A DNA stretch of 32,000 bases, taken from NCBI RefSeq assembly GCF_000015025.1, contig NC_008578.1:1200001-1232000 (forward strand), written 5' to 3'. The notes beneath the pieces were generated by a model that was not told where the DNA came from, searched no databases, and saw only the letters and a list, made by a program, of their open reading frames with translations. A program made the translations under genes and the position numbers. The first letter of the stretch is position 1. The number at the start of each line of letters is the position of its first letter. Source of the DNA: Acidothermus cellulolyticus 11B. Lineage in GTDB: Bacteria > Actinomycetota > Actinomycetes > Acidothermales > Acidothermaceae. Of this stretch, positions 7,731-24,431 are shown piece after piece.

Positions 7731-8417
7731 GTGCACGCGGCCGCTCTCCGGTTCCTCGGGGCGCTGGCCGCCGTGACTGTGCTGACGGGTTGTACGCGTA
7801 GCTCCGGCAACCGCGTCGTTTCGATGTCACCAACGGTGCCGACGTCCGCGTCCGTCGTGTCGGCGACGGCGACGCCGAGCCCATCAGCCAGCGCGTCACC
7901 GCTGCTGCCAGGCAATTGCGCGGAGCTTGCGCCACTGCAGCGGGTCGAAGAAGCGCTCGGCGTCAACCTACTGGGCGACGTCACGTACCTGCGCGCCGCG
8001 CCGGTGCCACAGTCCGGACGGACCGGCCGAGTCACCTGCGGGTACGGCACTCCGGTGACCACGCCGTCCGGTGGGACGCCGACCCCGAGTGGGCGGCCGT
8101 TGGTCGAGCTTTCCTACATCACGTACGTCGACGCGAAAACCGCGGCGGATCGCGTGACTCTCACCGTGCATACCGATAGTCAGCACGCGACGACGACCCA
8201 GGTGCAGGTGGACGGCAAACCCGCGTGGGTCCTCGTCGGCTCCGACTGGGACGAGCTGGTGATGGCCGACGGTGCCCGCACGATTGTCGCGGAAGTCTCA
8301 CCCCGGATTCTTGCCCCGGAGAAGGCGCCGGCGGTGCTAACCCGGCTGGCCGCGCAGATGCTCGCCTTCGGTGCATCGATGTCGCCCGGCGCGTCGGGTG
8401 CTGCGTCCAGTGGTTAG
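7731..8417 (+). CDS. Putative lipoprotein of unknown function
   Basis: The GTG at 7731 lies 1 nt after the rpsA stop and is preceded by GAAGGA. The N-terminus VHAAALRFLGALAAVTVLTGC carries a lipobox (L-T-G-C). A Ser/Thr/Pro/Ala linker follows, then a globular part. Confidence 0.65.
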   Translation: MHAAALRFLGALAAVTVLTGCTRSSGNRVVSMSPTVPTSASVVSATATPSPSASASPLLPGNCAELAPLQRVEEALGVNLLGDVTYLRAAPVPQSGRTGRVTCGYGTPVTTPSGGTPTPSGRPLVELSYITYVDAKTAADRVTLTVHTDSQHATTTQVQVDGKPAWVLVGSDWDELVMADGARTIVAEVSPRILAPEKAPAVLTRLAAQMLAFGASMSPGASGAASSG

Positions 8418-8442
8418 TCAGACCGACCGTTCGCCCAATCCG

Positions 8443-9084: not shown

Positions 9085-9168
9085 CCGGGTGGATTGTGCC
9101 GGGTGCGACGCGCGCGTACGGCACCTGTGAACGTCGGCCGTGTGCCGTGCTGATGGCGCGCGGGCTCA

Positions 9169-9211
9169 TTGACAAGCTCCAGACGCCTTCGTATCGTTCG
9201 TATACAAACGA
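9169..9211 (+). promoter_or_regulatory. Putative promoter (TTGACA-17-TATCGT) with overlapping operator-like palindrome S1 (TCGTTCGTATACAAACGA, 9194-9211)
   Basis: The -35 TTGACA is at 9169-9174 and the -10 TATCGT at 9192-9197, with a 17-nt spacer. The 18-nt palindrome (8 of 9 arm positions pair) starts inside the -10. It lies 21 nt upstream of the aldehyde dehydrogenase GTG at 9232 and is related to sites at 15514 and 17801. Confidence 0.55.
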
Positions 9212-9231
9212 CATTGAGGGAGGACCCGCGC

Positions 9232-10671
9232 GTGCGTCTGGAATTCCGCAACTTCATTGATGGCCGCGTCGTCGATCCCTCGGGGGATGAGGCTCTGCCC
9301 ATCACGGATCCGCACTCCGGTGAAATCATTGGATATTCCGCCCGCTCGAATGCGGAAGACATCGATCGAGCGTGTAGGGCCGCGGCGGAGGCCTACACCA
9401 CGTGGCGGGATACCACCCCCGCGGAACGATCTCGGGTCTTGCTGCGGATCGCTGATGACATCGAAGAGCGTGTCGAGGAGCTGGCCCGCTTGGAGAGCCG
9501 GAACACTGGTAAGCCGCTTCAGGTGCTTCGCAGCGTCGAGATACCCGCGATGGTCAACCAGATTCGGTTTGTCGCAGGAGCCGTACGAGCGCTCGTCGGA
9601 CCGACGGCCGGGGAGTATCGTCGTGGGTCGACCTCGTATCTGCGCCGTGAGCCGGTCGGTGTCGTGGCACAGATCACCCCGTGGAATTACCCCCTCATCA
9701 TGGCCGCGTGGAAGTTCGCACCCGCGATCGCGGCCGGAAATACCGTCGTGTTGAAGCCGTCCGAAACGACGCCGGTCACGACTCTGGCACTTGCCGAGCT
9801 TGCCTCGGCTCACTTGCCTCCCGGTGTCTTCAACGTCGTCTGCGGTGACGCCGCTACCGGCGCCGCACTCGCGGCACATCCCCTCCCACAGCTTGTTGCC
9901 ATCACCGGTTCCGTGGCCGCAGGCGTGGCCGTCGCCGAAACGGCGAGCCGGGATGTGAAGCGGCTGCACCTCGAACTTGGCGGCAAGGCCCCCGTCCTAG
10001 TGTTCGACGATGTCGACATTCCCAAGGCGGCGGCGGCGATCGCCGAGGCGGGGTTTTTCAACGCGGGTCAGGATTGCACCGCGGCGACGAGGGTTCTGGC
10101 CGCTCGCGACATTGCTGACGACCTGACTGCGGCATTGGCCAAAGAAGCGGCGGACATTCCGACGACCTTTGCGTACGGTGTCGAACATCCGCGCGCCTTG
10201 GTGCCCGCCCTCAACAACGTCCGGCAGTTGGAACGCGTAGCCCGGCATATCGAGACTCTGCCGCCGCATGCAGTCGTGGTTGCAGGCGGCCGCCGACAGG
10301 GCGAACGCGGTTTTCATTTCGCACCCACGGTTGTTGCACACCTTCACGAACATGACGACATCACCTGTACGGAGGTCTTCGGTCCGGTCATCACCGTCGA
10401 GACCTTCGCAACCGAAGAGGAAGCGGTCCGTCGTGCGAATGACGTGCCATACGGACTCGCATCAAGCGTGTGGACGACAGACCTGGCGCGGGCGATGAGA
10501 ATCGCGCGGAGGCTCGATTTCGGTTGCGTCTGGATCAACGAACACGGCTCACTTGTTGCCGAGATGCCTCACGGAGGCTTCAAACACTCCGGTTACGGTA
10601 AAGATCTCTCGATTTACTCGGTCGAGGAGTACACCAGGGTCAAACACATCATGGCTCGATTCGACGAATGA
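9232..10671 (+). CDS. NAD(P)-dependent aldehyde dehydrogenase, gamma-aminobutyraldehyde dehydrogenase (PatD/YdcW)-like
   Basis: The GTG at 9232 follows GAGGGAGGA (9216-9224). Motifs are ELGGKAP, FFNAGQDCTAATR (catalytic Cys), EVFGPV and a C-terminal MPHGGFKHSGYGKDLSIYSVEEYTRVKHIM. The last closely resembles E. coli PatD as I recall it. Confidence 0.85.
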   Translation: MRLEFRNFIDGRVVDPSGDEALPITDPHSGEIIGYSARSNAEDIDRACRAAAEAYTTWRDTTPAERSRVLLRIADDIEERVEELARLESRNTGKPLQVLRSVEIPAMVNQIRFVAGAVRALVGPTAGEYRRGSTSYLRREPVGVVAQITPWNYPLIMAAWKFAPAIAAGNTVVLKPSETTPVTTLALAELASAHLPPGVFNVVCGDAATGAALAAHPLPQLVAITGSVAAGVAVAETASRDVKRLHLELGGKAPVLVFDDVDIPKAAAAIAEAGFFNAGQDCTAATRVLAARDIADDLTAALAKEAADIPTTFAYGVEHPRALVPALNNVRQLERVARHIETLPPHAVVVAGGRRQGERGFHFAPTVVAHLHEHDDITCTEVFGPVITVETFATEEEAVRRANDVPYGLASSVWTTDLARAMRIARRLDFGCVWINEHGSLVAEMPHGGFKHSGYGKDLSIYSVEEYTRVKHIMARFDE

Positions 10672-12008
10672 CGGGAGATACGGTGACGTCTGACCAGACC
10701 ACGGAGTCGGCCGTTCCAGGGCCGCGCAGTGCCGAGCTGCATCGCCGGCGGGAGGCTGCGGTCGCCCGGGGCGTGAGTTCCGTTGCACCCTTCTATGTCG
10801 CCGGCGCACGCGACAGCCGGCTCGTCGATGTGGACGGGAGATCGTATATTGACCTCACGTCCGGGATTGCGGTCGCCAATGTCGGCCATGCGCCAAAGCA
10901 CGTTATCGAGGCGATTCACGCTCAGGCTGAGAGTTTTCTGCACACCTGTTTCATGGTCGCGCCATACGAGCAGTATGTGGCGGTGTGCGAACGACTGAAT
11001 GCCCTAACGCCCGGTGCATTTGCGAAGAAAAGTCTCCTGGTCAATTCAGGGGCTGAAGCGGTGGAGAACGCTGTCAAGATTGCCCGCTATGCCACAAATC
11101 GGCCGGCCGTCGTTGTCTTTGAGAATGCCTATCACGGGCGCACCAACTTGACGATGGCGATGACCGCGAAAGCGCATCCGTACAAAGACGGATTCGGCCC
11201 CTTCGCGGGTGAAATCTATCGAGCGCCGATGTCGTATCCTTTTCGCGATCCGGCAGCCATGACCGGCGAGGAGGCCGCTGCGCGCGCCATCGACGTTATC
11301 GAGCGCTACGTCGGAGCGGCACGTGTTGCATGCGTCGTCATAGAACCGATCCAGGGTGAAGGAGGATTTGTCGTTCCCGCACCCGGATTCCTACCCACAT
11401 TGCGGCAGTGGTGCAGTGAAAACGATGTCCTCTTCGTCGCTGACGAGATTCAAACCGGGTTCGGACGGACCGGGCACATGTTCGCGTGCGAGCACGAGTC
11501 CGTCGTCCCCGACATTATGATTCTCGGTAAGGCTCTGGCGGGAGGTCTGCCGCTTGCCGCGGTGACTGGCCGCGCGGATCTCGTTGATCGGGTGCATCCG
11601 GGCGGGTTGGGCGGTACGTACGGTGGAAATCCGGTCGCGTGTGCGGCGGCGCTCGCCACCCTGCACCTTCTCGAGGCAATGAATGCGCCCGCCCGCGCCC
11701 GCGGAATTGAGAAGATCATGCGGCCGCGGCTGGATGCTCTCGCAGCTCGCTATCCGTTCATTGGCGACGTTCGCGGTCGGGGTGCCATGCTTGCCCTCGA
11801 GGTGGTGCGGCCGGGCACAAAGGATCCCGATGCGGCGCGGACAGCCGATATCGTGCGTTCATCGTATGACGAAGGTCTCGCAGTCCTAAGCTGCGGTATG
11901 TACAGCAATGTACTGCGGTTTCTGCCGCCGCTGAGTATCGACGACGCGCTGCTCGTGGAAGCGATGAACCGGCTCGACCACGTCTTCGAGCGGGTAGCCG
12001 CCGCTTGA
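10668..12008 (+). CDS. Class-III PLP aminotransferase, 4-aminobutyrate aminotransferase (GabT/PuuE)-like
   Basis: The ATG overlaps the upstream stop (ATGA at 10668-10671). Motifs are SGAEAVENAVKIAR, DEIQTGFGRTG and ILGKALAGGLP (PLP lysine). Confidence 0.85.
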   Translation: MTGDTVTSDQTTESAVPGPRSAELHRRREAAVARGVSSVAPFYVAGARDSRLVDVDGRSYIDLTSGIAVANVGHAPKHVIEAIHAQAESFLHTCFMVAPYEQYVAVCERLNALTPGAFAKKSLLVNSGAEAVENAVKIARYATNRPAVVVFENAYHGRTNLTMAMTAKAHPYKDGFGPFAGEIYRAPMSYPFRDPAAMTGEEAAARAIDVIERYVGAARVACVVIEPIQGEGGFVVPAPGFLPTLRQWCSENDVLFVADEIQTGFGRTGHMFACEHESVVPDIMILGKALAGGLPLAAVTGRADLVDRVHPGGLGGTYGGNPVACAAALATLHLLEAMNAPARARGIEKIMRPRLDALAARYPFIGDVRGRGAMLALEVVRPGTKDPDAARTADIVRSSYDEGLAVLSCGMYSNVLRFLPPLSIDDALLVEAMNRLDHVFERVAAA

Positions 12009-12021
12009 GTATCGTGGTGGC

Positions 12022-12738
12022 ATGCCGACGGTCCTCTTCATCGAGCACGATCACGTTTCTCCGCCAGGCCTCCTGGGTGACGCGTTCGAGAAATGCGGCT
12101 GGGACGTCGCAGAGTTTCTCGTCGTACCGCCTGAATCATTTGACAGCCCGGCGATAGACGTCCGTTTACCGGATCCGCTGCACTATGACGCGGTCGTGCT
12201 GCTCGGTGCTCCCTGGTCGGTGTACGACGAAGCGCTGCAGGAACGGTGGGTCGGGGAGGAAATCGCGTTGGCCCGACAAGCCGACGCCGAGGGCATGCCC
12301 GTCATCGGTGTCTGTTTTGGTGGTCAGCTTCTCGCCGCCACCCATGGTGGACGGGTCGAACGCGCGGCATGCGCTGAAGTCGGCTGGACGAGGATCCATT
12401 CCCGCGTCCCGGAGTTCATTCCGGAGGGTCCGTGGCTGCAATGGCATCAGGACCGATGGCACACACCAGCGGGTGCGGCGGAGCTCGCCCATAGCCTTGT
12501 TGCGCCGCAGGCCTTCATGCTTCGGGCGAACCTCGCTGTTCAATTTCATCCCGAAGCGGATGAAACCGAGGTGGCTCTCTGGCTGGAGGCCGGAGGCGCC
12601 GATTACGTGCGCCAGCACAACCTCGACCCCGACGAACTTCTTCGGATCACTCGTCGTGAGCAGGCGCGCGCCGCTCAGTGCACCGAGAAATTGCTCAAAG
12701 GGTACTTGGAGCGTGTTCACGACCTGAACCGCCGGTGA
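12022..12738 (+). CDS. Stand-alone class-I glutamine amidotransferase-like protein (candidate gamma-glutamyl-amide hydrolase)
   Basis: The nucleophile elbow is GVCFGGQLL and the His/Glu region is AVQFHPEAD. It lies 13 nt after the aminotransferase on the same strand. Confidence 0.75.
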   Translation: MPTVLFIEHDHVSPPGLLGDAFEKCGWDVAEFLVVPPESFDSPAIDVRLPDPLHYDAVVLLGAPWSVYDEALQERWVGEEIALARQADAEGMPVIGVCFGGQLLAATHGGRVERAACAEVGWTRIHSRVPEFIPEGPWLQWHQDRWHTPAGAAELAHSLVAPQAFMLRANLAVQFHPEADETEVALWLEAGGADYVRQHNLDPDELLRITRREQARAAQCTEKLLKGYLERVHDLNRR

Positions 12739-12864
12739 ACAACGAACCGTCTGTGCACGACGGGATGACCGCGAGCCGGCTCAGGCTGGAGATAGCCCGG
12801 GACGCGACGGCAACCGGTGAGAGGAGGTGCGTGCCGTCGGCCCCGGGTTGCCTCCGGCCTTCTG

Positions 12865-14109
12865 TCACGCGAGGGTGACCCGCACCGGCATCTTCTTCAC
12901 GCCGTGGATGAAGTTGGAACGGACGTACGAGACATCACCGGCCAACTCCATGCGCTTGATTCTGGGCAGGAGCGTCTCGAACATGATCCGGATCTCCATA
13001 CGGGCAAGCTTGTTGCCGAGGCAGAAGTGTGGGCTGCCCTTCCCGAACGTCACGTGATCATTAGGATGGCGCGTCACGTCAAACCGATACGGATCCGTGA
13101 AGACCTCCTCGTCGCGGTTGCCGGACGCGAACCACATCACGACCTTATCGCCGGCGCGAATGTGCTTTCCGTGCAGCTCGACGTCACGGGTGGCGGTACG
13201 GCGGAAGTGGTACACCGGTGACGCCCAGCGAAGGAATTCCTCCACCGCTTGTGGAATGAGCTCCGGCCTGTCTTGGAGCAGGCGCATCTGGTCGGGGTTG
13301 TTGATCAGGGCGAGCATCGAGTGGCTGATCGCGTGTCGAGTCGTCTCATTGCCGGCGATGACCAAGAGTAGGAAGTAGTTGTCGAAATCACGCTGGGAAA
13401 GCGGCACGCCATCCTCGGGCATCTGGTTGACGAGCTTGCTCACCAGATCCTGTCCGCTGCGGCCGCGTCGCTGCCGGGCAAGCTCACGACCGTATTCGAA
13501 CACCTCGAGCGCCGCGGGGGAGCGGAATGGAAGATGGCGATACTTGTTGCTCTCCGGACTGTCCAGAAGAACATCCGCATAGTCCGGATCGGTGTTCCCA
13601 ATCATGCGATTGCCCCACGCGATCAGCCTTCCGGTGTGGTGTTCCGGAACATCGAGCATGCGGGCGAGAACCTGAATGGGAAAGTCCGCGCTCACCTCGG
13701 AGACGAAATCGAATTCCTTATGCCGCAGAGCCGCCTCCACGGTCGCTCTCGTCAACCCTCGAAGAAAGGACTCGTAGCCCTTGAGGGTGGTTGTTCCGAA
13801 ATCCCTGACGAGCAGACGCCGCAGTGCATGATGACGCGGTCCGTCGGTCTCGAGCATGGAGCGGCGTATCTCCATCGTCTCCTCGTCGAGTTCCTCAAGG
13901 TTGACGAACTTCTCCGAGGTGAAGGTTTCCGGGTCCCGGTCCACCGCGACGATGTCGGCGTGCCGGGTGACCGCCCAGAAGCCCTTGTTGGGCGGCGGCT
14001 CAGGATTCCAGTACACCGGTTCTTCGCGGCGGAGATAATCAAACGCAGGCCATGCGCGGTCCTGCTCGAACATGTCGAGATCGGTGAGATCGACGGTTGT
14101 TTGCTGCAC
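12865..14109 (-). CDS. Cytochrome P450 monooxygenase (resembles the actinobacterial CYP124/125/142-type group)
   Basis: The heme-thiolate loop is FGKGSPHFCLGNKLAR, the I-helix is AGNETT, and ExxR is EEFLRW. The GTG start at 14109 has GGAGGA just upstream. It lies 44 nt downstream of the GS-like gene on the same strand. Confidence 0.9.
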   Translation of the reverse strand: MQQTTVDLTDLDMFEQDRAWPAFDYLRREEPVYWNPEPPPNKGFWAVTRHADIVAVDRDPETFTSEKFVNLEELDEETMEIRRSMLETDGPRHHALRRLLVRDFGTTTLKGYESFLRGLTRATVEAALRHKEFDFVSEVSADFPIQVLARMLDVPEHHTGRLIAWGNRMIGNTDPDYADVLLDSPESNKYRHLPFRSPAALEVFEYGRELARQRRGRSGQDLVSKLVNQMPEDGVPLSQRDFDNYFLLLVIAGNETTRHAISHSMLALINNPDQMRLLQDRPELIPQAVEEFLRWASPVYHFRRTATRDVELHGKHIRAGDKVVMWFASGNRDEEVFTDPYRFDVTRHPNDHVTFGKGSPHFCLGNKLARMEIRIMFETLLPRIKRMELAGDVSYVRSNFIHGVKKMPVRVTLA

Positions 14110-14153
14110 GGGTCCTCCGGAAGTTGTGCGGTCAACGTAGGGGCAATGAGCGA

Positions 14154-15503
14154 TTAGAGGTGGTAGAGATATTCACCGACTTCCCAGTCGGTCACGTAAT
14201 GTGCGAAGCGTTCCAGTTCGTTCCGCTTATAGGTCACGAACGCCGAGATCAGGGGCTTCCCTAGGATCTCCGTGAGCTCGGTGTCCGCCTCCAGGGCGTC
14301 AAGGGCGGCTTCGAGATTCCGGGGCAGAAGTCGGGAGCGGGACGCATCGTAACCGTATCCCTCGGTCGGCGGCGGCGGCGTGAGTTTCTCTTCGATGCCG
14401 AGGTACGCGCCGGCCACGACACTTGCGATGGCGAGATAGGGGTTGGCCGTCGCGTCTCCGAGACGGACTTCGATGCGTGTGGCGTCTCCGCGTTCGGGGG
14501 GAATCCGTACCATCGTGCTCCGATTGTCCAGCCCCCAGTCAATCAACCAGGATGCGAGCGTGTCGGGACCGAACCGTTTGTAGGAATTGATCGTGGGGTT
14601 ATTGAACGCGGCGAGAGCCGGCGCATGCGCGAGGATGCCTGCAACGGCGTGTTCCGCCAGCGACGACAGGCCGGTGGGAGCCGCCTCATCAGCAAACAGT
14701 GACCGATCGCTCGGATCCACGATGGAGAAGTGGAGGTGGAATCCCGAGCCGCCCTCCTCGTTGAACGGCTTCGCCATGAAGGTGGCGTGTTTGCCGGCGC
14801 GGCGGGCTAACTCCTTGACGGCCGTGCGGAAGCGGAAAGCGCGGTCCGCGGCGTCCAATGCGTGCGAGTGGCCAATATTGATCTCAAATTGCCCGCTGAA
14901 GAACTCGTGATTGCCCGCGGTGGCGCGAATACCGTAGCGGGCGAGCTGCCTGAGAAATTCGAGGAGCAGGTTTTCTGGGTCGCCCTTGCGCCCGGCCACG
15001 TAGACGTTGCCCGGTGCCTCGCCGTACCGCCGCCAACCGGACGACGACGAGCCCTCCAGGAGGTAGAACTCCATTTCCGGACCGACGACCGGAACGAGAT
15101 TCTCGGCTTCGCATCGACCCACCACAGAGCGCAGCACTGAGCGCGGGCTCTCCGCGCATGGGCGGCCGTCGGGCTCGACGATGTCAGCCAGGACGTGGGC
15201 GACGCCGTCCTCCCAGGGAATCTTGCGAACCGTCGACAGATCCGGCTTGGCAAGGACGTCAGGCAATCCGGCGTCGAGACCGCCGGCGACCGGTACGACG
15301 TCCCCCCTCGGGCTGGTGTGGAAGACCCCGCGGCAGAACGCAATGCCGCCTTCACCCAGGTGGTGCGCAAGCGTTTCGACGACAAGATCCCGGCCGCGTT
15401 CCGTTCCGATGAGGTCCGCGTATCCGATCCGCAGAACGTCGATTCCCTCGCTGCGCAGCTGCTCCGTCAGGCGCTCGACGTTACGTTGATCGTCGGACTG
15501 CAT
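14154..15503 (-). CDS. Glutamine synthetase-like gamma-glutamyl-amine ligase (GlnA3/PuuA/IpuC/TdnQ-type family)
   Basis: The protein is 449 aa. The GS catalytic-domain signatures are KPFNEEGGSGFHLHFS, NSYKRF and RIEVRLGDATANPYLA. The ATG at 15503 has AGGAGG 6 nt upstream. The context is accessory, not the housekeeping glnA locus. Confidence 0.85.
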   Translation of the reverse strand: MQSDDQRNVERLTEQLRSEGIDVLRIGYADLIGTERGRDLVVETLAHHLGEGGIAFCRGVFHTSPRGDVVPVAGGLDAGLPDVLAKPDLSTVRKIPWEDGVAHVLADIVEPDGRPCAESPRSVLRSVVGRCEAENLVPVVGPEMEFYLLEGSSSSGWRRYGEAPGNVYVAGRKGDPENLLLEFLRQLARYGIRATAGNHEFFSGQFEINIGHSHALDAADRAFRFRTAVKELARRAGKHATFMAKPFNEEGGSGFHLHFSIVDPSDRSLFADEAAPTGLSSLAEHAVAGILAHAPALAAFNNPTINSYKRFGPDTLASWLIDWGLDNRSTMVRIPPERGDATRIEVRLGDATANPYLAIASVVAGAYLGIEEKLTPPPPTEGYGYDASRSRLLPRNLEAALDALEADTELTEILGKPLISAFVTYKRNELERFAHYVTDWEVGEYLYHL

Positions 15504-15513
15504 TCATGACCTC

Positions 15514-15537
15514 CTATCGTTTGGTACCAAACGATAG
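15514..15537. promoter_or_regulatory. Perfect 24-bp palindrome S2 (CTATCGTTTGGTACCAAACGATAG), operator-like, in the divergent GS-like / ADC-MarR intergenic region
   Basis: CTATCGTTTGGT and ACCAAACGATAG are exact reverse complements. The palindrome abuts the RBS of the GS-like gene. On the minus strand its TATCGT can serve as a -10 with TTGCTC 17 nt upstream. It shares the core GTTTGG-NN-CCAAAC with the site at 17808-17821. Confidence 0.65.
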
Positions 15538-15675
15538 AACAGACGCGGGCGGTGAGCAATAGACTGGGCGGGTCCGACACGCGGGGGAGGGCGACGGTCT
15601 CGTAACCAGATTCCGAATCGCCGTCGTACTCTTTCCGCTCGGATGACCGCTGACGACCATAGGGTAGGTGATGCG

Positions 15676-16503
15676 ATGCGGGGATTCTTTTACCCACGGA
15701 CGCCGACCGGGCAGGCGTCGATTATTCCTGCGCCGCCTTGGTATTACTCCGGGGACATGTTGACCGTTGAGTACCGGACCGATCCCGCTTTGGTGGCGGC
15801 CCTGCTGCCGCCTCCGCTGGAACCCGCTCCGGAGGATCCGGGCGCGGTCGCGATTATCTGGGCTGACTGGCAATCGTGCTCCGAAGGCGGCGCTGAGCTG
15901 CTTGATCCGGTCCGGGCACAGTACAAGGAAACGCTCGTCGTCGTCCGCTGCACGTATCGCGGTGAGATCTTTTCCCGCTGCGTCTTTATCTGGGTCGACA
16001 AGGACTTTGCCCTCGTCCGGGGGCTGCATCAGGGCTATCCGAAGAAGCTGGGCTCGATCTGGATGACACGGCCCCATCCCTACGGACGGGCCGCCCCCCG
16101 ACTCGAAGCGGGTGCCACGATAGCGGCCACGCTCGCTGCGGCGGACCGTCGGCTGGCACAAGCAGTCGTGACATTGCGCGATGTTGTCGAGGCACCCGGC
16201 TTCGTGAACAGCCATCCGATGGCACACCACCGCGTTGTCCCCGGGATAGCCAAAGGCGCGCCGGACGCCCTGAACGAGCTCATCCGATCCGCTGCCGCCG
16301 CGGTCACGGGCGGGCCCGTCTGGCGAGGTGACGCGTCCTTGGAGCTCTTTGAGTCGCCGACGGAGGAGCTTGCCGCACTCCGTGTCGATGAGATCATAGG
16401 TGGCTACTATCGGCAGGTGGGAGTCGTATGGGACGGCGGTGAGGTCCTCGCGCCGCACGGTTCGGGTGGCGGTGTACAGCCTCCCGAGGCGCGCGAATCA
16501 TAG
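15676..16503 (+). CDS. Acetoacetate decarboxylase (ADC)-family protein
   Basis: MRGFFYPRTPTG...YRTDPALVAALLPPPLEP aligns with the N-terminus of clostridial Adc as I recall it. The Schiff-base lysine context YPKKLG is conserved (HQGYPKKLGS). I preferred the ATG at 15676 (AGGGTAGG 7 nt upstream); the ATG at 15643 is an alternative. Confidence 0.8.
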   Translation: MRGFFYPRTPTGQASIIPAPPWYYSGDMLTVEYRTDPALVAALLPPPLEPAPEDPGAVAIIWADWQSCSEGGAELLDPVRAQYKETLVVVRCTYRGEIFSRCVFIWVDKDFALVRGLHQGYPKKLGSIWMTRPHPYGRAAPRLEAGATIAATLAAADRRLAQAVVTLRDVVEAPGFVNSHPMAHHRVVPGIAKGAPDALNELIRSAAAAVTGGPVWRGDASLELFESPTEELAALRVDEIIGGYYRQVGVVWDGGEVLAPHGSGGGVQPPEARES

Positions 16504-16551
16504 TCATTTCACCTCGGACCTGGTCGGCGACGGACAAGGAGGATGCGGCGC

Positions 16552-17067
16552 ATGACGGGTTATCACACCTTGGCGGAAACCGAGAAGGCCATGGCCACTC
16601 ACCTCAAAGGATTGCCGATCGACATGGCCGCCGCTGAAGCCGTCTCAAACCTTTACCGGGCGGCTAATATCGCCCGCAACCATCTCACGCAGACGGTCCT
16701 GAAAGATGTCGATCTCACCTGGACCGCATTTGTCGTCCTCTGGGTGACCTGGATGTGGGACGGCATTGAGAGCCGGCACGCTGCGGAGGAAGCCGCCATC
16801 TCCAAGGCGACCTTGACCGGCGTGGTCCAGACGTTGGAGCGTCGGGGTCTCCTTGCTCGATTCGGCGATTCCGATGATCGACGTCTGGTGCGTCTCCGGC
16901 TTACCAACGAAGGCCGGAGCCTGATGCAGAAGCTCTATCCGGTTTTCAACGCGGAGGAACAATTCATCGTATCGACATTGAGTCCGCGCGTGCGCTCCAC
17001 CATGACCCGAGGGCTGCGTGCTATCGTCGCCCATCTTGAGTCGCAAAGCGACACGCGGCGTCCATAA
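16552..17067 (+). CDS. MarR-family transcriptional regulator
   Basis: The winged-HTH region is AAEEAAISKATLTGVVQTLERRGLLARFGDSDDRRLVRLRLTNEG. The ATG at 16552 sits 9 nt after AAGGAGG (16536-16542); the ORF-track ATG at 16543 abuts the RBS. It lies 48 nt downstream of the ADC-family gene. Confidence 0.85.
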   Translation: MTGYHTLAETEKAMATHLKGLPIDMAAAEAVSNLYRAANIARNHLTQTVLKDVDLTWTAFVVLWVTWMWDGIESRHAAEEAAISKATLTGVVQTLERRGLLARFGDSDDRRLVRLRLTNEGRSLMQKLYPVFNAEEQFIVSTLSPRVRSTMTRGLRAIVAHLESQSDTRRP

Positions 17068-17752
17068 ACGCTTTGAAAATTGCCATCTGTGCTTGATCGC
17101 TCGGCGTCCCGTCTTCCGGATGCCATTGGATGCCGAGGCACCAACCCGCTTCACCGGACAGTTCGAACGCTTCCGGCGTGCCGTCCACGGCCCAGGCCAC
17201 TGGGCGAAGTCCGCGGCCCGGTCGAGCGACACACTGGTGATGAAAGCAGGACACCCACATGCTCGGCCGAGTGACGATCTGACCAAGGCGGCTGGCCGGC
17301 TCGACCGTCACGTCATGTTTACGATGACGGTGCGCCTCTTCCGCCATATCAACGACAAGGGAGCCTCCTAGGGCGACGGTCAAAACGTGAAGGCCGCGGC
17401 AGATTCCCAAGAGTGGAACCCCTCGGGCGACGCAGTGGCGTGCGCAGGCGAGATCCACCGCGTCTTGTTCGACGTCGACGTCGTACAGCGTCGGATGCTC
17501 CGCCTCGCCGTACCACTGGGGGTGCAGATCGCCGCCGCCGGGGAGCAGGACGGCGTCCGCCTCCCGGAGCCGATCCGCCAGCTCCGTTTCATCGATCGTG
17601 CCGTTGGGAGCCCAGGGCAAGAAGGACAACGGCTCGCCACCCGCCAGGTAGACGGCTTCGGCAAGGGCGCGCGCGGTGGCCAGTGCGGCAAAGCGAAGCG
17701 CAGAGGCGCGCGCCGAGAAGCGGGCCGGTATGAAGACCCGTGGACGTTGCAT
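17021..17752 (-). CDS. Gamma-glutamyl-gamma-aminobutyrate hydrolase (PuuD)-like peptidase C26 / class-I amidotransferase
   Basis: The nucleophile is GICRGLH, with CFHHQ and GIQWHPE. The C-terminal AIFKAFMDAAC resembles the E. coli PuuD tail. The 3' end overlaps the MarR 3' end by 47 nt. Confidence 0.85.
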   Translation of the reverse strand: MQRPRVFIPARFSARASALRFAALATARALAEAVYLAGGEPLSFLPWAPNGTIDETELADRLREADAVLLPGGGDLHPQWYGEAEHPTLYDVDVEQDAVDLACARHCVARGVPLLGICRGLHVLTVALGGSLVVDMAEEAHRHRKHDVTVEPASRLGQIVTRPSMWVSCFHHQCVARPGRGLRPVAWAVDGTPEAFELSGEAGWCLGIQWHPEDGTPSDQAQMAIFKAFMDAACRFATQDGRR

Positions 17753-17781
17753 GACAACGCTCCAATGCGTCTGTGCAGTTC

Positions 17782-17827
17782 TTGACCCGTCGACGACAGC
17801 CTATTATGTTTGGACCCAAACGAATAG
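17782..17827 (+). promoter_or_regulatory. Putative promoter (TTGACC-17-TATGTT) with overlapping operator-like quasi-palindrome S3 (CTATTATGTTTGGACCCAAACGAATAG, 17801-17827)
   Basis: The -35 is at 17782-17787 and the -10 at 17805-17810, with a 17-nt spacer. The core GTTTGG-AC-CCAAAC (17808-17821) matches S2 in 14 of 18 positions over 17806-17823. It sits between the divergent PuuD-like (start 17752) and HpaE-like (start 17860) genes. Confidence 0.55.
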
Positions 17828-17859
17828 ACGCACGAGTAGACGACGGCGGGAGGGTGCGG

Positions 17860-19341
17860 ATGCCGCGTACGACGTCCGTCAGCGGAATTGAGGTTTCCGT
17901 TGACCACTGGGTGGGCGGCGAACGCCTCGCGTCGGATGCGACGTTCCCTGACATTTCACCGCTTGATCAGCAGGTTCTCGCCAATGTCGCCCGCGGCGGA
18001 CCGCGGGAAGTGAGCGCCGCGGTCGACGCCGCTTCGGCGGCGTTTCCGCAATGGGCGGCGACACCGCGCACCGAGCGGGCCGCCCTCCTGCACGCCGTAG
18101 CGGAAGGCATCGAGAAGCGTGTCGACGATCTCGCACTCGTCGAAACGTTGGACAACGGGGGGTTGCTCCGGTCCCATCGTCGGAGTGTGATTCCCCGCGC
18201 CGCGTATAACTTTCATTTCTTTGCGGATTTTCTCTTGCAGCTCGGTCATGAGGATTTCGAGACACGAGGACATAGAAACCACATTTCGTGGCAACCGGCA
18301 GGAGTCACGGCGGTCATCACGCCGTGGAATGCACCGTTGATGCTCGCCACCTGGCGGGTCGCACCCGCCCTAGCCGCCGGCAATACCGTCGTGCTCAAGC
18401 CCCCGGAGTGGGCGCCGTTGACGGCATCACTCCTCGCCGACATTACCGCTGAAGCCGGGCTGCCGCCAGGCGTCTTTAACGTCGTGCAGGGTATTGGGGA
18501 GGAGGCCGGTGCCGCACTGGTGCGCGATCCCCGGGTACGCCGTATCGCCTTCACCGGCTCGGTTGCGACCGCGCGCGCCATCGGTCACGCGGCAGCGGAG
18601 AACGTCATCCCCGTCTCCTTCGAGCTGGGAGGCAAGAATCCGTTCATTGTCTTTCCCGACGCCGACCTGGACCTCGCTGTACGACACGCGGTGGATCAGT
18701 ACGACAACGCCGGCCAGGTCTGTCTCGCCGGCACGCGATTGTACGTCGCCGACGCCGTCTACGACGAATTCCTTGAGCGGTTTCTCCAGGCGGCTGCGGC
18801 GTGGCGGGTAGGGGACCCGCGCAGCGAAGACGTCGACATGGGCCCGCAGATTCATCCCGACCATCTTGCGCGCATTGACGGATACGTCCGCCGCGCGAAA
18901 GCCGCCGGGGCGACGGTCCTACTCGGCGGCGGCCCGCATCCGGAGCTGGGCGGTCTGTACTACCAACCCACCTTATTGACGAATGTTGCCGATGACAGTG
19001 AGATCAACCGCGAAGAAGTCTTCGGTCCTGTCATTGTCCTGCATCGATTTACGGACGAAGACGAAGTCATCCGGCGTGCGAACGACAATATCTATGGGCT
19101 CGCGGCGATGGTCTTTACCGGCGACCGGTCACGGGCGGAGCGCGTCGCGGACCGGCTGGTCGCCGGCACCGTCTGGGTGAACTGCTTCTACGTCCGCGAC
19201 TTGCGGGCGCCGTTCGGCGGCGCGCGGTTGTCCGGTATCGGCCGGGAAGGCGGCACCTGGTCGTTCGACTTCTACGCGGAGGTCAAGAACACGGTGACCG
19301 CCCCGAGCGGCTGGTTGATAAAGGAGGCGAATGGTGGGTGA
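17860..19341 (+). CDS. Ring-fission semialdehyde dehydrogenase (5-carboxymethyl-2-hydroxymuconate / 2-hydroxy- or 2-aminomuconate semialdehyde dehydrogenase, HpaE-like)
   Basis: The ATG at 17860 follows GGGAGGG. The sequence is collinear with E. coli HpaE as I recall it: HWVGGE, IPRAAYNFHFFADF, FELGGKNP, NAGQVCLAGTR and VRDLRAPFGGARLSGIGREGG. Confidence 0.85.
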   Translation: MPRTTSVSGIEVSVDHWVGGERLASDATFPDISPLDQQVLANVARGGPREVSAAVDAASAAFPQWAATPRTERAALLHAVAEGIEKRVDDLALVETLDNGGLLRSHRRSVIPRAAYNFHFFADFLLQLGHEDFETRGHRNHISWQPAGVTAVITPWNAPLMLATWRVAPALAAGNTVVLKPPEWAPLTASLLADITAEAGLPPGVFNVVQGIGEEAGAALVRDPRVRRIAFTGSVATARAIGHAAAENVIPVSFELGGKNPFIVFPDADLDLAVRHAVDQYDNAGQVCLAGTRLYVADAVYDEFLERFLQAAAAWRVGDPRSEDVDMGPQIHPDHLARIDGYVRRAKAAGATVLLGGGPHPELGGLYYQPTLLTNVADDSEINREEVFGPVIVLHRFTDEDEVIRRANDNIYGLAAMVFTGDRSRAERVADRLVAGTVWVNCFYVRDLRAPFGGARLSGIGREGGTWSFDFYAEVKNTVTAPSGWLIKEANGG

Positions 19342-20245
19342 AGTCGTCGGTGCGGGACTGCTGTCCCATGTGCCAACGATCATGTTGCCGGAGTCCACGC
19401 GGCGTGAGTTGTACGAAGGCAAAGACACCACGCTCGTCGACGGACTGCGTCGGCTTCGTACTGAAGTCTTTGAAACGCTCGACTATGACACGGTCGTCGT
19501 CCTTGACTCGCACTGGGCGACCACCGTCGAGTTCGTTGTGACGGCACACCCGCTCCGGGCCGGCCTCTTTACCTCAGAAGAGCTGCCGCGCGGCATGCGT
19601 CGCATCCCTTACGACTTCATGGGCGATCCTGATCTCGCACATGCCATCGCCGCAGCCGCGGAGAGACACGGCACCTGGATCACGGCAATCGACGATCCAT
19701 ATTTGCCAATCTTTTACGCCACGGTCAATCTCTGGAAGTATCTGGGGGAGGGACTCGATCGGAGGTGGATCTCCCTCAGTGTCTGCCAAACCGCAGATAT
19801 GGAAGACTTTCTGCGCGCCGGTCGAGCCCTTGGCGAGGCAATCATCAACTCTGATCGCCGTGTCATACTCATCGCATCCGGCGCGCTGAGCCATACCTTC
19901 TGGCCGCTCCGCGAATTGCGGAAGCATGAAGCCGCGGGTGTTGAACACATCTTCAGCAGGGAAGCCGCCGATGCCGACAACGAGCGGCTTGCCTGGTTCC
20001 AGAAGGGTGATCACGCTCAGGTGCTCCGGACGATGGGGGAGTTCTACCGTTTCAAGCCGGAGGCGAAATTTGGTCACTACCTTCTGATGATGGGCGCACT
20101 CGGCGAGGAGGCCTGCACGGCACCCGGGCGGTTATTCAGTGCATATGAAAATTCGATCGGCACGGGACAAGTCCACGTGTGGTTCGATCGTCCAGAAGGA
20201 GGCTTTCCCGCTCCGCGCGCGACAGACACTCGTGGCGATGACTGA
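19331..20245 (+). CDS. Class III (LigB-type) extradiol ring-cleavage dioxygenase, HpaD/HpcB-like
   Basis: Motifs are LSHVPTIM, VVLDSHW, IASGALSHTFW and IGTGQVHVWF, as in homoprotocatechuate 2,3-dioxygenase (HpcB) and the related AmnB/LigB enzymes. The start (ATG 19331 or GTG 19334) overlaps the upstream stop, and AAGGAGG is at 19321-19327. Confidence 0.85.
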   Translation: MVGEVVGAGLLSHVPTIMLPESTRRELYEGKDTTLVDGLRRLRTEVFETLDYDTVVVLDSHWATTVEFVVTAHPLRAGLFTSEELPRGMRRIPYDFMGDPDLAHAIAAAAERHGTWITAIDDPYLPIFYATVNLWKYLGEGLDRRWISLSVCQTADMEDFLRAGRALGEAIINSDRRVILIASGALSHTFWPLRELRKHEAAGVEHIFSREAADADNERLAWFQKGDHAQVLRTMGEFYRFKPEAKFGHYLLMMGALGEEACTAPGRLFSAYENSIGTGQVHVWFDRPEGGFPAPRATDTRGDD

Positions 20246-21110
20246 GGTCGAGCGCGTTACCGAGTACCGCCGGATACTCCTCGACGGCGCGGAAACCCGC
20301 GTCGAGCGGCACGGTGACCTATTGATCGCACCAGACGGCCGACGTGTTCCGGTCGAGAAAGCGGTTCATCTCCCTCCCGTTCAGCCAACAAAGATTATCG
20401 CGGTACACCTCAATTACCGCAGCCGCGTCGAGGAGTTTCACGCGCGGCTTCCGCCGGCTCCCACCTACTTTCACAAGCCGACGACGGCGCTCAACGCTCA
20501 CGGAGGCGCCGTCGTGCGGCCGCAACGATGCCGTTGGCTCAACTTCGAAGGTGAATTCGCTGTGGTGATCGGTAGGCCATGCCGCAACATCCGGCCGGAT
20601 GACGCGATGGACTACGTCGCCGGATTCACCATAGCGAACGATTTCGGGCTGCACGACTTCCGGGACACGGATGCAGGGTCCATGCTTCGCGTCAAGGGCT
20701 CCGATACGCTCTGCCCTCTGGGCCCGGGACTCGTCGTCGGCTGGCAACCGCAGGGCAAGCGCCTGCGTACCTATGTCAACGATCGCGTCGCTCAGGATGC
20801 GTCAACAGACGAGATGGAGTGGAGCCCCGCGTATCTCATCGCCGACATCGCCCGCACCATCACCCTGCTGCCCGGTGACGTGATTCTCACCGGTACACCC
20901 GCGGGCTCGCGTCCGGTCGAACCAGGTGACGTTGTCACGGTGGAGGTCGAAGGCCTCGGCCGCCTGGTCAACTACGTTGTCGAAGGACCAATACCGGTGC
21001 GTGATGACGTCGGCGCGCAGCCGTCGTCATCAGAAGAAGTGGTCTCCACCGCCCTCGGCGGCGATTGGGAGTTCCGAGGCATTCGGCCTCCCCGCCGTGC
21101 GGTGGAGTGA
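20238..21110 (+). CDS. Fumarylacetoacetate hydrolase (FAH)-family enzyme (HpaG/HpcE-type decarboxylase/isomerase or hydratase, single domain)
   Basis: The ATG at 20238 (or GTG at 20232) overlaps the dioxygenase stop (ATGACTGA). FAH-fold motifs are KIIAVHLNYRSR, NFEGEFAVVIG and GDVILTGTPAG. Confidence 0.8.
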   Translation: MTEVERVTEYRRILLDGAETRVERHGDLLIAPDGRRVPVEKAVHLPPVQPTKIIAVHLNYRSRVEEFHARLPPAPTYFHKPTTALNAHGGAVVRPQRCRWLNFEGEFAVVIGRPCRNIRPDDAMDYVAGFTIANDFGLHDFRDTDAGSMLRVKGSDTLCPLGPGLVVGWQPQGKRLRTYVNDRVAQDASTDEMEWSPAYLIADIARTITLLPGDVILTGTPAGSRPVEPGDVVTVEVEGLGRLVNYVVEGPIPVRDDVGAQPSSSEEVVSTALGGDWEFRGIRPPRRAVE

Positions 21111-21149
21111 CCCGGTGTATCAACCACTGCCACAGGAAAACGGGAGTCA

Positions 21150-21371
21150 ATGATCATGCGGATTGTCGTTGATCTGACGAAATGCCAGGATCACGGACAG
21201 TGTGTCTTCTCATGCCCGGAAGTGTTCTCGCTGGACGAGAACGGGAAGCTGTCTTTTCGAAAGTACGCGCAAGAGCTCTACCGATCGGAGCTCATTTCAG
21301 AGGAGCTGCGCGACAAGGTCGAAGAGGCGGCCGACGTCTGCCCCACCCAGGCAATTCTTATTGAGGAGTAA
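21150..21371 (+). CDS. Small ferredoxin, [3Fe-4S]-type P450 redox partner
   Basis: The protein is 73 aa. The cluster motif is C-QDH-GQ-C ... C-P (CxxHxxC...CP), as in actinobacterial P450-associated ferredoxins. The start is ATG 21150 or 21156. Confidence 0.85.
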   Translation: MIMRIVVDLTKCQDHGQCVFSCPEVFSLDENGKLSFRKYAQELYRSELISEELRDKVEEAADVCPTQAILIEE

Positions 21372-21374
21372 AAG

Positions 21375-22619
21375 GTGCAACGCGTCGTCGTGGTCGGCGC
21401 GTCGGTAGCGGGACTTCGAGCGGTTGAATCGCTGCGCAGGAACGGATTCGCCGGCGAAATCCTCGTTATCGGCGGTGAGCGCTGGCCGCCGTACAACCGC
21501 CCGCCGCTCTCCAAGACCGTTCTCACGGCTACCGAATTGCCGGGCTTCGATGAGATCGCGCTTCCTCTTTCGCCACGGATCGGTGACGTCCAATGGCGGT
21601 TGGGTGTCCGTGCGGCGGCGTTGGACGTGGACGCACGCGTCGTCGTCCTCGAGGACGGCCAAACGGTCGAGTGGGACGGTCTCGTTATCGCGACCGGACT
21701 GCGACCGGTGCGGTTGGCTGTCCCCGGGCCGACGGTGAGGCGGTACGTGCTTCGCAATTTTGATGACGCGCGGGCACTCCGAGACGTGCTGCAGCCCGGT
21801 GCCCGGCTTGTCGTGATCGGTGCGGGGTTCATTGGTTGCGAGGTCGCCTCCGCCGCGAGGGAACGCGGGGTCCACGTGGTCGTTGTCGGACGCTCGGAAT
21901 ACCCTCTTCCCGGGCTGGGCGACATTCTGGGAAGCGAACTGCGGAGACTTCACGAGACACATGGCGTCCGCTTCCTCGGAGCACGAGCGGTCGTTGCTTT
22001 CGAGGGAACCGACCATGTACGCGGTGTAGTCCTCGACGACGGCACCGAACTGGCCGCCGACATCGTCGTTGAAGCAATCGGCGGCGCCCCGGAGACGGAT
22101 TGGCTCGTAACCACCAAGCTCGACATCCACAACGGCGTGCGGTGTGACGGAATGTTACGAGCACTCGACATTTCGGGACAGCCCATACCCAACGTCGTGG
22201 CATGCGGTGATGTCGCACGAGTGCCCCTGCTGCGCGGGGCGGGAATTGAAGGCCGAGTGGAGCACTGGTCAATGGCCATTGAGACGGGACGGTACGCCGG
22301 CCGCACCCTCGCTGCATCCTTGTCCGGTGCGGCGGCAGGTGCGCCGTCTGTGCCGATGGTGCCGACGTTCTGGTCAGACCAATATGGCGTTCGGCTCTCC
22401 GGCGTGGGTCTGCCTGAGATGCATGACGGCGAGATCCGGGTACGGCATGACAGCGCGGCCGGCGAAGTCGCGATCTCGTACTTCCGGGCCGGACGGTTGA
22501 TCGGCATCGCTGCACTCGGCTGTGCCGCACGACTCCCGGAGTTTTACGACGCGGTCCGGCGCTCCTGGCAGGATGAGGGCCACCCGGTCTCGACCGTGAC
22601 TCGGTCGTCGCCGCGCTAA
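21375..22619 (+). CDS. FAD-dependent ferredoxin-NAD(P)+ reductase (pyridine nucleotide-disulfide oxidoreductase family)
   Basis: The GTG at 21375 lies 3 nt after the ferredoxin stop, with GAGGAG upstream. The FAD fold is VVVVGASVAGLRA, the NAD fold is LVVIGAGFIGCEVA, and ACGDVA is also present. Confidence 0.88.
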   Translation: MQRVVVVGASVAGLRAVESLRRNGFAGEILVIGGERWPPYNRPPLSKTVLTATELPGFDEIALPLSPRIGDVQWRLGVRAAALDVDARVVVLEDGQTVEWDGLVIATGLRPVRLAVPGPTVRRYVLRNFDDARALRDVLQPGARLVVIGAGFIGCEVASAARERGVHVVVVGRSEYPLPGLGDILGSELRRLHETHGVRFLGARAVVAFEGTDHVRGVVLDDGTELAADIVVEAIGGAPETDWLVTTKLDIHNGVRCDGMLRALDISGQPIPNVVACGDVARVPLLRGAGIEGRVEHWSMAIETGRYAGRTLAASLSGAAAGAPSVPMVPTFWSDQYGVRLSGVGLPEMHDGEIRVRHDSAAGEVAISYFRAGRLIGIAALGCAARLPEFYDAVRRSWQDEGHPVSTVTRSSPR

Positions 22620-22829
22620 GCCGGCGGCCTTCGCGCGGTGTGTTTCTGTTGGTCAACAACAATGTGACGATCTGTTCAGGGGTCTTGTCAGAAGATAGTT
22701 CGGGCCCTAATATCTCACCAGACGCGTGGCTCATCATTACGAGACCGAGTAGTTGACGGTGCCCGTCGGTACCGCCGCGGCTGCCGTCGTTCGAACGCGT
22801 CTTCCTATCGTGTCGATCGAGGAGGCCCT

Positions 22830-24380: not shown

Positions 24381-24431
24381 CGGTACGCGTGGTGCGCGCA
24401 GGTTAGCCTCGCGCTGTCCGAGTACTGACCG

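Follow-up and report, generated by a model that had tools for sequence, protein, structure and literature searches.

A Ligase–Cytochrome P450 Gene Pair as the Proposed Entry Module of a Repressor-Controlled Amine Catabolic Cluster in Acidothermus cellulolyticus and Other Actinobacteria

Known catabolic routes that proceed through gamma-glutamylation of an amine oxygenate the resulting amide by Rieske or multicomponent oxygenases, and to our knowledge those that depend on a cytochrome P450 exist as annotations only. Here we analyze a gene pair of the latter kind, encoding a glutamine synthetase (GS)-like ligase and a P450, in a stretch of 32,000 nucleotides from Acidothermus cellulolyticus 11B (contig NC_008578.1, positions 1,200,001 to 1,232,000), referred to below as the window. 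The closest precedent is found on plasmid pTC1 of Paenarthrobacter aurescens TC1, where an amidotransferase, a P450, a ferredoxin, a ferredoxin reductase, and ipuC are consecutive, and the Microbacterium plasmid pYJNG is organized in a like manner. A preliminary description of the window held that a class-I three-component P450 in this role had not been described. That statement has to be withdrawn, as the ipu clusters of pTC1 and pYJNG are already annotated in this way, with the P450 step itself being a prediction. We consider it likely that the ligase–P450 pair of the window is a module that first glutamylates its substrate and then oxygenates it. That the pair forms the entry to a catabolic cluster under repressor control, one leading from tyramine to 4-aminobutyrate (GABA), a route whose chemistry we infer throughout, has in our estimation slightly less than an even chance. 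With somewhat more reserve, we tentatively propose that arylethylamines of the tyramine type are degraded wholly as N-gamma-glutamyl conjugates, the glutamyl group being kept through ring fission and the route ending in pyruvate and gamma-glutamyl-4-aminobutanal.

The Ipu pathway (pTC1/pTC2 of strain TC1, and pYJNG) resembles the window in its clustering of a GS-like ligase, a PuuD/GATase-like amidase, a P450/ferredoxin/reductase system, an APC permease, and aldehyde dehydrogenases, and in its order of glutamylation, oxygenation of the amide, and deglutamylation. However, the identities to window proteins are low, being 37% between the ligase and IpuC of pTC1, 37% between the PuuD-like protein and the amidotransferase that adjoins the P450 on pTC1, and 29% between the P450s; on this last figure, orthology of the window P450 with the TC1 ipu P450 was rejected. 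Genes for ring cleavage are missing from the Ipu clusters as well, which serve to degrade a small alkylamine. In the putrescine pathway of Escherichia coli (PuuA–PuuE), PuuB forms gamma-glutamyl-4-aminobutanal, the late intermediate proposed here, which PuuC and PuuD convert to GABA. Both this pathway and our locus have an amidase of the Peptidase_C26 family alongside a GS-like ligase, and there are further parallels in a PuuC-like gene of related loci and a GABA transaminase of the window. The two differ in that a PuuB-type oxidase is absent from the window and in that the source of the aldehyde would be an aromatic amide whose ring is cleaved, not putrescine. The homoprotocatechuate (Hpa/Hpc) pathway, which ends in pyruvate and succinate semialdehyde, provides the best matches of three consecutive window genes (HpaD-, HpaE-, and HpaG-like) and has in HpaR a counterpart of the MarR-type regulator. 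Yet the HpaBC hydroxylase is absent from the window, neither HpaH nor HpaI is encoded in the island, where an enzyme of the acetoacetate decarboxylase (ADC) fold stands in their place, and the proposed side chain is N-glutamyl-aminoethyl instead of carboxymethyl.

Two further groups of systems are relevant. The mycobacterial MorA/PipA (CYP151) systems for morpholine, piperidine, and pyrrolidine likewise rely in amine catabolism on a P450 of class I whose partners are a small ferredoxin and a flavin adenine dinucleotide (FAD)-containing reductase, but the P450 belongs to another family, aromatic ring-cleavage genes are lacking, and it is not established that MorA or PipA acts on a gamma-glutamyl compound. 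A GS-like open reading frame (ORF) is said to lie 5' of morABC, and a Pseudomonas pip cluster reportedly involves gamma-glutamylpiperidide. In the aniline and 1-naphthylamine pathways, in which a GoaS ligase is combined with a Rieske dioxygenase that acts on the gamma-glutamyl arylamide, an aromatic amine is glutamylated before it is oxygenated and the cluster includes a GATase-like hydrolase (PMC11335346). The oxygenase of our locus is a P450 instead, and whereas the nitrogen is lost at the dioxygenase step of the aniline route, we propose that it is retained through ring cleavage here. P450s are not mentioned in a recently published overview of amine ligases of the GS-like type (PMC11335346). 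In Gulosibacter molinativorax, "glutamine synthetase" genes are located two gene numbers from PipA/BioI-type P450 partners and are co-induced with them (PMC9477822). Our literature searches found no description of a cluster that unites a glutamylate/P450 module with aromatic meta-cleavage and Puu-type steps. A GS-like ligase beside a class-I P450 system has already been annotated; a tyramine-type route in this predicted form appears not to have been described.

The pair is conserved well beyond the window. P450s that are 68–80% identical to the window P450 are common in Actinomycetota, and the cluster occurs in several hundred actinobacterial species, with at least 512 confirmed relatives. Our comparison set consists of the best 80 of these at least 512 P450 relatives (68–78% identity to the window P450), with one genome scanned per species; a GS-like gene was sought within 10 kb of each P450, and all ORFs of the 80 loci were clustered to obtain counts of recurrent partners. 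A GS-like gene (57–70% identity) is directly upstream and co-directional in 60 of the 80 loci; a further 14 have it at another place in the locus, and 6 lack it. Where the two genes are adjacent, the gap from ligase to P450 measures 16–127 nt. Among the carriers are Streptomyces, Mycolicibacterium, Aeromicrobium, Microbispora, Actinomadura, Nakamurella, Kutzneria, Microlunatus, the wastewater genus Phosphoribacter, and many metagenome-assembled genomes. Adjacency of the pair spans many actinobacterial orders and is far beyond chance. A survey of co-occurrence across genomes was among the checks suggested in the preliminary description, and its outcome favors the pair. One copy of the cluster is carried by the mobilizable Streptomyces canus plasmid NZ_CP107732 (L087), beside transposase and integrase genes, and the cluster appears to move horizontally.

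The arrangement of the two genes in the window agrees with this pattern. Both ORFs are on the minus strand, the ligase gene preceding the P450 gene by a spacer of 44 nt (14110–14153) that contains no hairpin, and the P450 has a Shine–Dalgarno sequence of its own, GGAGGA, 5 nt 5' of its GTG start. An ORF of 314 amino acids on the same strand (15514–16458) was considered as an upstream member of the operon and rejected: it has no family match, its sequence is Arg/Pro-rich and of the wrong-frame type, and a clear member of the ADC family is encoded opposite to it. Because this ORF is an antisense artefact of the plus-strand ADC-family gene, the operon has two genes and begins with that of the ligase; had the ORF been accepted uncritically, the start of the operon and its promoter would have been misplaced. 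The operon is transcribed divergently from an ADC–MarR operon, and a palindrome between the two, site S2, directly adjoins the Shine–Dalgarno sequence of the ligase. The co-directional pair and the shared S2-controlled promoter that had been described earlier are both supported, as we find a conserved two-gene unit behind a common palindromic operator. What the earlier account of the operon left out was the divergent ADC-family/MarR operon, the wide conservation of the cluster, and the end product hinted at by the flanking aminobutyraldehyde dehydrogenase and GABA transaminase genes.

Several lines of evidence suggest that the ligase acts on amines. With the NCBIfam equivalog thresholds as cut-offs for family membership, its scores remain below every cut-off: 286 bits against 429 for the GlnA model TIGR00653 and 130 against 845 for NF007006, which by score excludes it from GlnA type I; 285 against 470 for type III GS; and 274 against 650 for the gamma-glutamylputrescine synthetase model NF045547, so that it is not a PuuA equivalog either. 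The GS catalytic domain is complete, and the motifs for metal, ATP, and glutamate are retained (PEMEF, NHEF..QFE, GSGFHLH, NSYKR, NRSxxxRIP, and RIEVR). In an alignment to the true GS 8ool, however, FDGSS is represented by RGDVV(P), GGYF by GNVY, the equivalent of N264 by G, and PGYEAP by PDTLAS, and the residues replaced include the flap Glu, the serines of FDGSS, and the ammonium-site Tyr. The flap Glu is likewise absent from the amine ligases 5dm3 and GmaS (9qur). Judged by its sequence, the protein is a putative GS-like amine ligase of the GoaS type, the group that comprises PuuA, IpuC, AtdA1, NpaA1, and GlnA3/4, and not a glutamine synthetase.

The P450 is placed in its superfamily by the heme-thiolate Cys loop FGKGSPHFCLG, the I-helix motif AGNETT with its acid-alcohol pair, and the EXXR element EEFLRW. 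Its best solved relatives are CYP125MRCA (413 bits), CYP124 (268 bits), CYP125A1 (238 bits), and CYP142 (202 bits), and the resemblance to the CYP124/125/142 group noted previously is therefore real. Membership of CYP125 would call for more than 40% identity to named members together with a sterol context. The identity of ~55% that we estimated by eye from an alignment refers to CYP125MRCA, which is a reconstructed ancestor and has identical heme-binding and I-helix motifs, and the natural enzymes CYP125A1 and CYP124 reach only 238–268 bits. The context is also one of amine and aromatic catabolism, not of sterols, since family searches of the window proteins found no sterol-catabolic genes in the island. 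In addition, the P450 contains a 12-residue insertion, SxKYxHLPFRSP (residues 187–198, window 13516–13551), which is aligned between D183 and A199 and is absent from CYP125MRCA. Across 75 orthologues, LPF and the final P of this insertion are invariant and its R and S are conserved in 93–95%. We regard it as a candidate determinant for binding of the polar gamma-glutamyl head group.

These features bear on the possibility that the P450 is an ordinary CYP125-type hydroxylase of sterol or lipid side chains, or acts on some other compound that is not glutamylated, and that nothing beyond shared regulation ties it to the ligase. The relatives of known structure that it matches best do hydroxylate sterols and methyl-branched lipids, and CYP125MRCA oxidizes sterols (PMC12100521). 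Such a function would leave unexplained that the ligase gene is adjacent in so many genomes of so many orders and that the island lacks sterol-catabolic genes. It is also at odds with the insertion, which is specific to the clade, and with ten conserved polar, charged, or aromatic residues of the clade that differ from the CYP125 ancestor. We consider this explanation highly improbable.

The genes that travel with the pair bear on its substrate, and the most frequent of them suggest an aromatic ring (table 1). The window encodes an HpaE-like dehydrogenase, a LigB-type extradiol dioxygenase, and an HpaG/HpcE-like protein of the FAH family, and these are followed in the same operon by the ferredoxin and the FAD-dependent reductase, both of which are found in 30 of the 80 loci. 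The placement of the ferredoxin and the FAD reductase in the same island (21150–22619), 3' of the meta-cleavage genes, was as previously described. By gene content, the P450, ferredoxin, and reductase would constitute a class-I three-component system under one regulon. When the homoprotocatechuate enzymes HpaD, HpaE, HpaF/G, HpaH, and HpaI were used as the standard, the HpaD-, HpaE-, and HpaG-like proteins all scored below the equivalog cut-offs. The predicted ring-cleavage route would thus work like the homoprotocatechuate pathway, yet it is not a member of it. Both omega- and ring-hydroxylation of an N-glutamylated amine had been suggested for the P450. Because homoprotocatechuate-type meta-cleavage genes accompany the pair in more than 50 of the 80 genomes, ring hydroxylation of an arylalkylamine fits best, and the omega option fits less well.

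The ADC-fold enzyme, whose gene is the most widespread of these partners, has its best structural matches in 4jm3 (174 bits) and 4zbo (160 bits), compared with 29 bits against the true acetoacetate decarboxylase 3bgt. The Lys of its YPKKLG motif aligns with the Schiff-base residue K122 of Sbi00515 (FPKKLG). On its fold, on this Lys, and on being closer to them than to true acetoacetate decarboxylase, it belongs with the Sbi00515/MppR group, and we consider it a candidate hydratase-aldolase that would act on the 2-oxo-3-enoate with which ring cleavage ends.

The same genes allow other amines to be weighed. Were the amine aliphatic or cyclic (pyrrolidine, piperidine, or isopropylamine, for example), the P450 would hydroxylate a carbon of the gamma-glutamyl amide, as has been proposed for the ipu clusters. 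Relatives in CYP125/124 do hydroxylate aliphatic carbons, ligase, amidase, and P450/ferredoxin/reductase are combined in the same way in the ipu-type clusters of TC1 and pYJNG, and some loci comprise MarR, ligase, and P450 genes only. Pyrrolidine, moreover, would yield gamma-glutamyl-4-aminobutanal directly, and the aminobutyraldehyde dehydrogenase and GABA transaminase of the window would suit it. However, the LigB, HpaE-like, HpaG-like, and ADC-fold genes, present in 53–64 of the 80 loci at 60–76% identity, would have no role, the ferredoxin and reductase of the window share their operon with ring-cleavage genes, and the P450 is distant from that of pTC1. We therefore regard an aliphatic or cyclic amine as unlikely.

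With a ring-nitrogen arylamine as substrate, for example aniline or an aminophenol, the P450 would hydroxylate gamma-glutamylanilide at the ortho position, the amidase would free 2-aminophenol, and the LigB protein would cleave it in the manner of aminophenol 1,6-dioxygenase. Gamma-glutamylation of aniline and of 1-naphthylamine is established (PMC11335346), and the LigB protein does match beta subunits of aminophenol dioxygenase. That match is the weaker one, at 53.7 bits compared with 84.6 bits to the homoprotocatechuate dioxygenase HpaD (8iq8), and no gene for an alpha subunit accompanies it. With 2-aminomuconate deaminase not present and with the PuuC-like, succinate-semialdehyde dehydrogenase (SSADH)-like, and GABA transaminase genes left unexplained, a substrate of this type seems very unlikely to us.

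A further set of genes is consistent with a GABA end point. All four Puu-type kinds of gene (ligase, aldehyde dehydrogenase, amidase, and GABA transaminase) occur in the window, and all of the proteins score below the Puu equivalog cut-offs. Besides the PuuD-like protein there is a second candidate amidase, of the class-I GATase type, with homologues of 39–49% identity near the P450 in 31 of the 80 loci. Its gene is preceded in its operon by those for an aldehyde dehydrogenase (ALDH1) and a GABA transaminase. We rejected these two genes (9232–12008) as members of the conserved cluster, since nothing corresponds to them in the comparison set of 80, where ALDH1 matches of 35–41% are cross-matches to paralogues; on sequence comparison they are additions specific to the window and co-operonic with the conserved GATase gene. 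In 15 related loci, an aldehyde dehydrogenase gene with PuuC as its best family match lies directly 5' of the PuuD-like gene, and in 3 loci an SSADH-like aldehyde dehydrogenase gene follows 3' of ligase, P450, and GATase genes. The window operon, the PuuC-like genes, and the SSADH-like genes are three independent observations that fit a GABA end point. A gene resembling pyridoxal-phosphate-dependent aromatic-amino-acid decarboxylases, found in 15 of the 80 loci, has its best structural matches in 4obu, which we take to be the tryptophan decarboxylase of Ruminococcus gnavus, and in DOPA decarboxylases, and this predicted function fits production of the amine from an aromatic amino acid.

It is also conceivable that the amino acid itself is used. 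The alpha-amino group of tyrosine would then be gamma-glutamylated, the P450 would produce gamma-glutamyl-DOPA, and ring cleavage would give pyruvate and gamma-glutamyl-glutamate semialdehyde and, from the latter, two glutamates. The carbon arithmetic of this scheme is equally good, the island includes an APC-family amino-acid permease, and N-protection would stop cyclization of cleaved DOPA of the betalamic-acid type. However, the decarboxylase-like gene, the PuuC-like and SSADH-like dehydrogenases, and the GABA transaminase of the window indicate an amine and a GABA end, and the characterized GS-like ligases take amines, not alpha-amino acids (PMC11335346). Tyrosine is for these reasons a quite unlikely substrate.

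We favor an arylethylamine of the tyramine type and propose the following sequence of steps, with a carbon count modeled on the homoprotocatechuate pathway in which -CH2-NH-gammaGlu replaces -COOH. The amine would enter by way of the APC permease, or in some genomes would be made by the aromatic-amino-acid-decarboxylase-like enzyme. The ligase would couple it, with ATP, to the gamma-carboxyl group of glutamate, giving gamma-glutamyl-tyramine, and the P450, with electrons from the ferredoxin and the FAD reductase, would hydroxylate ring C3 to yield gamma-glutamyl-dopamine, a 4-substituted catechol. Ring opening by the HpaD-like LigB protein, oxidation of the semialdehyde by the HpaE-like dehydrogenase, and isomerization and decarboxylation by the HpaG-like FAH protein would follow, after which the MppR/Sbi00515-like ADC-fold enzyme would hydrate and cleave the 2-oxo-3-enoate to pyruvate and gamma-glutamyl-4-aminobutanal. 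An aldehyde dehydrogenase together with the PuuD-like or the GATase-like amidase could then release GABA and glutamate, and the GABA transaminase would convert GABA to succinate semialdehyde. A free amine cyclizes with the product of extradiol cleavage, the chemistry of betalamic acid being an example. The acylated nitrogen would block such cyclization onto the ring-fission product, and it would bypass the reactive arylacetaldehyde and aminochrome routes.

A number of observations weigh against this proposal. First, the identity of the amine rests on genomic context, and the decarboxylase-like gene is found in only the 15 loci mentioned; likewise, retention of the glutamyl group through ring cleavage is suggested by the PuuC/PuuD-like genes, and the GABA transaminase is confined to the window. 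Second, CYP125/124 relatives are known for terminal hydroxylation of aliphatic chains and not for the formation of catechols from phenols. Third, some genomes (L003 and L005) have only the MarR, ligase, and P450 genes, and for this reason ring-cleavage genes are not obligatory neighbors. Fourth, the ferredoxin and reductase are replaced in about a quarter of the loci by a VanA-like/PDR-like pair (22–24 loci) that never occurs alongside them. A protein of the VanA_C/Rieske fold is encoded near the P450 in 24 of the 80 loci (e.g., L045:11317-12768(-), L025:11294-12418(-), and L044:14380-15465(+)), accompanied in 20 of those 24 by a PDR-type reductase (FNR + 2Fe-2S). The Rieske ligands CxH...CxxH were found in none of the 24 VanA_C proteins; in the 17 of 24 that allowed this region to be matched, the second motif reads SGYS/TGF. 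The P450 may be supplied with electrons by the PDR-type protein, or else the VanA-like/PDR pair is an alternative oxygenase. Finally, our literature searches found no paper that describes the cluster.

Gamma-glutamylation is a recurrent bacterial means of handling reactive amines. If the proposal is correct, its service as protection that persists while the ring is opened would be new, as would such a role for a CYP125-like P450. The route would supply a function for a large orphan P450 clade that stands beside the medically important CYP125/124 enzymes and a catabolic function for an ADC-fold aldolase-dehydratase. It would also represent a new way to degrade catecholamine-like compounds without toxic aldehydes or cyclized products, and a sink for biogenic amines that is relevant to soil and gut. 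Moreover, the P450 may make catechols from N-acyl tyramines, with a possible use in biocatalysis.

Table 1. Genes and putative operator sites of the catabolic island (window coordinates; locus counts refer to the comparison set of 80).
Feature	Position	Strand	Basis
Operator-like site S1	9196-9209	.	Just 5' of the ALDH1/GABA transaminase/GATase operon
Aminobutyraldehyde-dehydrogenase-type aldehyde dehydrogenase (ALDH1)	9232-10671	+	NF010000 649 bits (cut-off 615); S1 site 5'
4-Aminobutyrate transaminase	10668-12008	+	NF004714 678 bits (cut-off 639); translationally coupled to ALDH1
Class-I GATase-like protein, second candidate gamma-glutamyl amidase	12022-12738	+	Intact Cys-His-Glu triad; last gene of the ALDH1/GABA transaminase/GATase operon
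Cytochrome P450, CYP125/124-related clade, operon gene 2	12865-14109	-	414 aa; PF00067 93 bits
GS-like ligase, candidate gamma-glutamyl-amine synthetase, operon gene 1	14154-15503	-	449 aa; Gln-synt_C 327 bits
Perfect 24-bp palindromic operator S2	15514-15537	.	CTATCGTTTGGT/ACCAAACGATAG; between the divergent ligase-P450 and ADC-MarR operons
ADC-fold enzyme, MppR/Sbi00515 type	~15676-16503	+	PF06314 213 bits; MppR model 205 bits (cut-off 380); 64 loci
MarR-family regulator	16552-17067	+	PF01047; weak HpaR similarity; 47 loci
Peptidase_C26/PuuD-like gamma-glutamyl amidohydrolase	17021-17752	-	PF07722 151 bits; Cys and His-x-Glu motifs; 40 loci
Operator-like site S3	17808-17821	.	Separates the PuuD-like gene from the divergent ALDH-LigB-FAH-ferredoxin-reductase operon
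HpaE-like ring-fission semialdehyde dehydrogenase	17860-19341	+	HpaE best NCBIfam match, 529 bits (cut-off 638); 62 loci
LigB-type extradiol dioxygenase, most similar to homoprotocatechuate 2,3-dioxygenase	19331-20245	+	PF02900; HpaD_Fe 135 bits (cut-off 316); 53 loci
FAH-family, HpaG/HpcE-like decarboxylase/isomerase	20238-21110	+	PF01557; HpaG C-terminal model 207 bits (cut-off 276); PDB 1gtt 219; 55 loci
Small ferredoxin, candidate P450 redox partner	21150-21371	+	CxxHxxC...CP motif; Fer4_15
FAD-dependent ferredoxin reductase	21375-22619	+	Pyr_redox_2 and Reductase_C; ferredoxin-NAD+ reductase models
APC-family amino-acid/amine permease	22830-24380	+	Family models; 45 loci

The window has a G+C content of 61–70%, that of high-GC actinobacterial DNA, and its housekeeping genes are in the order polA, rpsA, coaE ... 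uvrB ... uvrA. The catabolic island of ~15 kb (9100–24400) is inserted between coaE and uvrB within this otherwise kept block. A gene of ~228 amino acids between rpsA and coaE (7733–8419, plus strand) has no Pfam match and is called in a near-identical contig (L001). A terminator scan of the window was not informative, with 6 found against 3.1 expected. Among the additional partners in the comparison set, an F420-dependent oxidoreductase of the LLM class is encoded in 17 of the 80 loci (e.g., L014:13663-14598(+) and L087:1307-2230(-)), and on the S. canus plasmid it adjoins a second P450 and a ferredoxin.

The cluster probably owes its regulation to the MarR protein, which is predicted to bind the palindromic operator sites as a repressor. 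For the core motif GTTYGN4CAAAC, 0.04 matches would be expected in the window, and 6 strand matches at 4 places were found. Of 72 related loci, 42 have the core at most 300 nt 5' of the GS-like gene, compared with ~1.6 expected from its overall density. When the full 18-bp operator was searched for with up to 3 mismatches, S2 alone was matched in the window, the other sites having come from the shorter core. The MarR and PuuD-like genes are convergent and their 3' ends overlap by 47 nt (17021–17067), an overlap that may couple their expression through transcriptional interference. The fourth exact match to the core, GTTCGTCGACAAAC at 2088–2101 on the minus strand, is far from the island, amid overlapping unannotated ORFs, and may be either a chance match or an extra member of the regulon.

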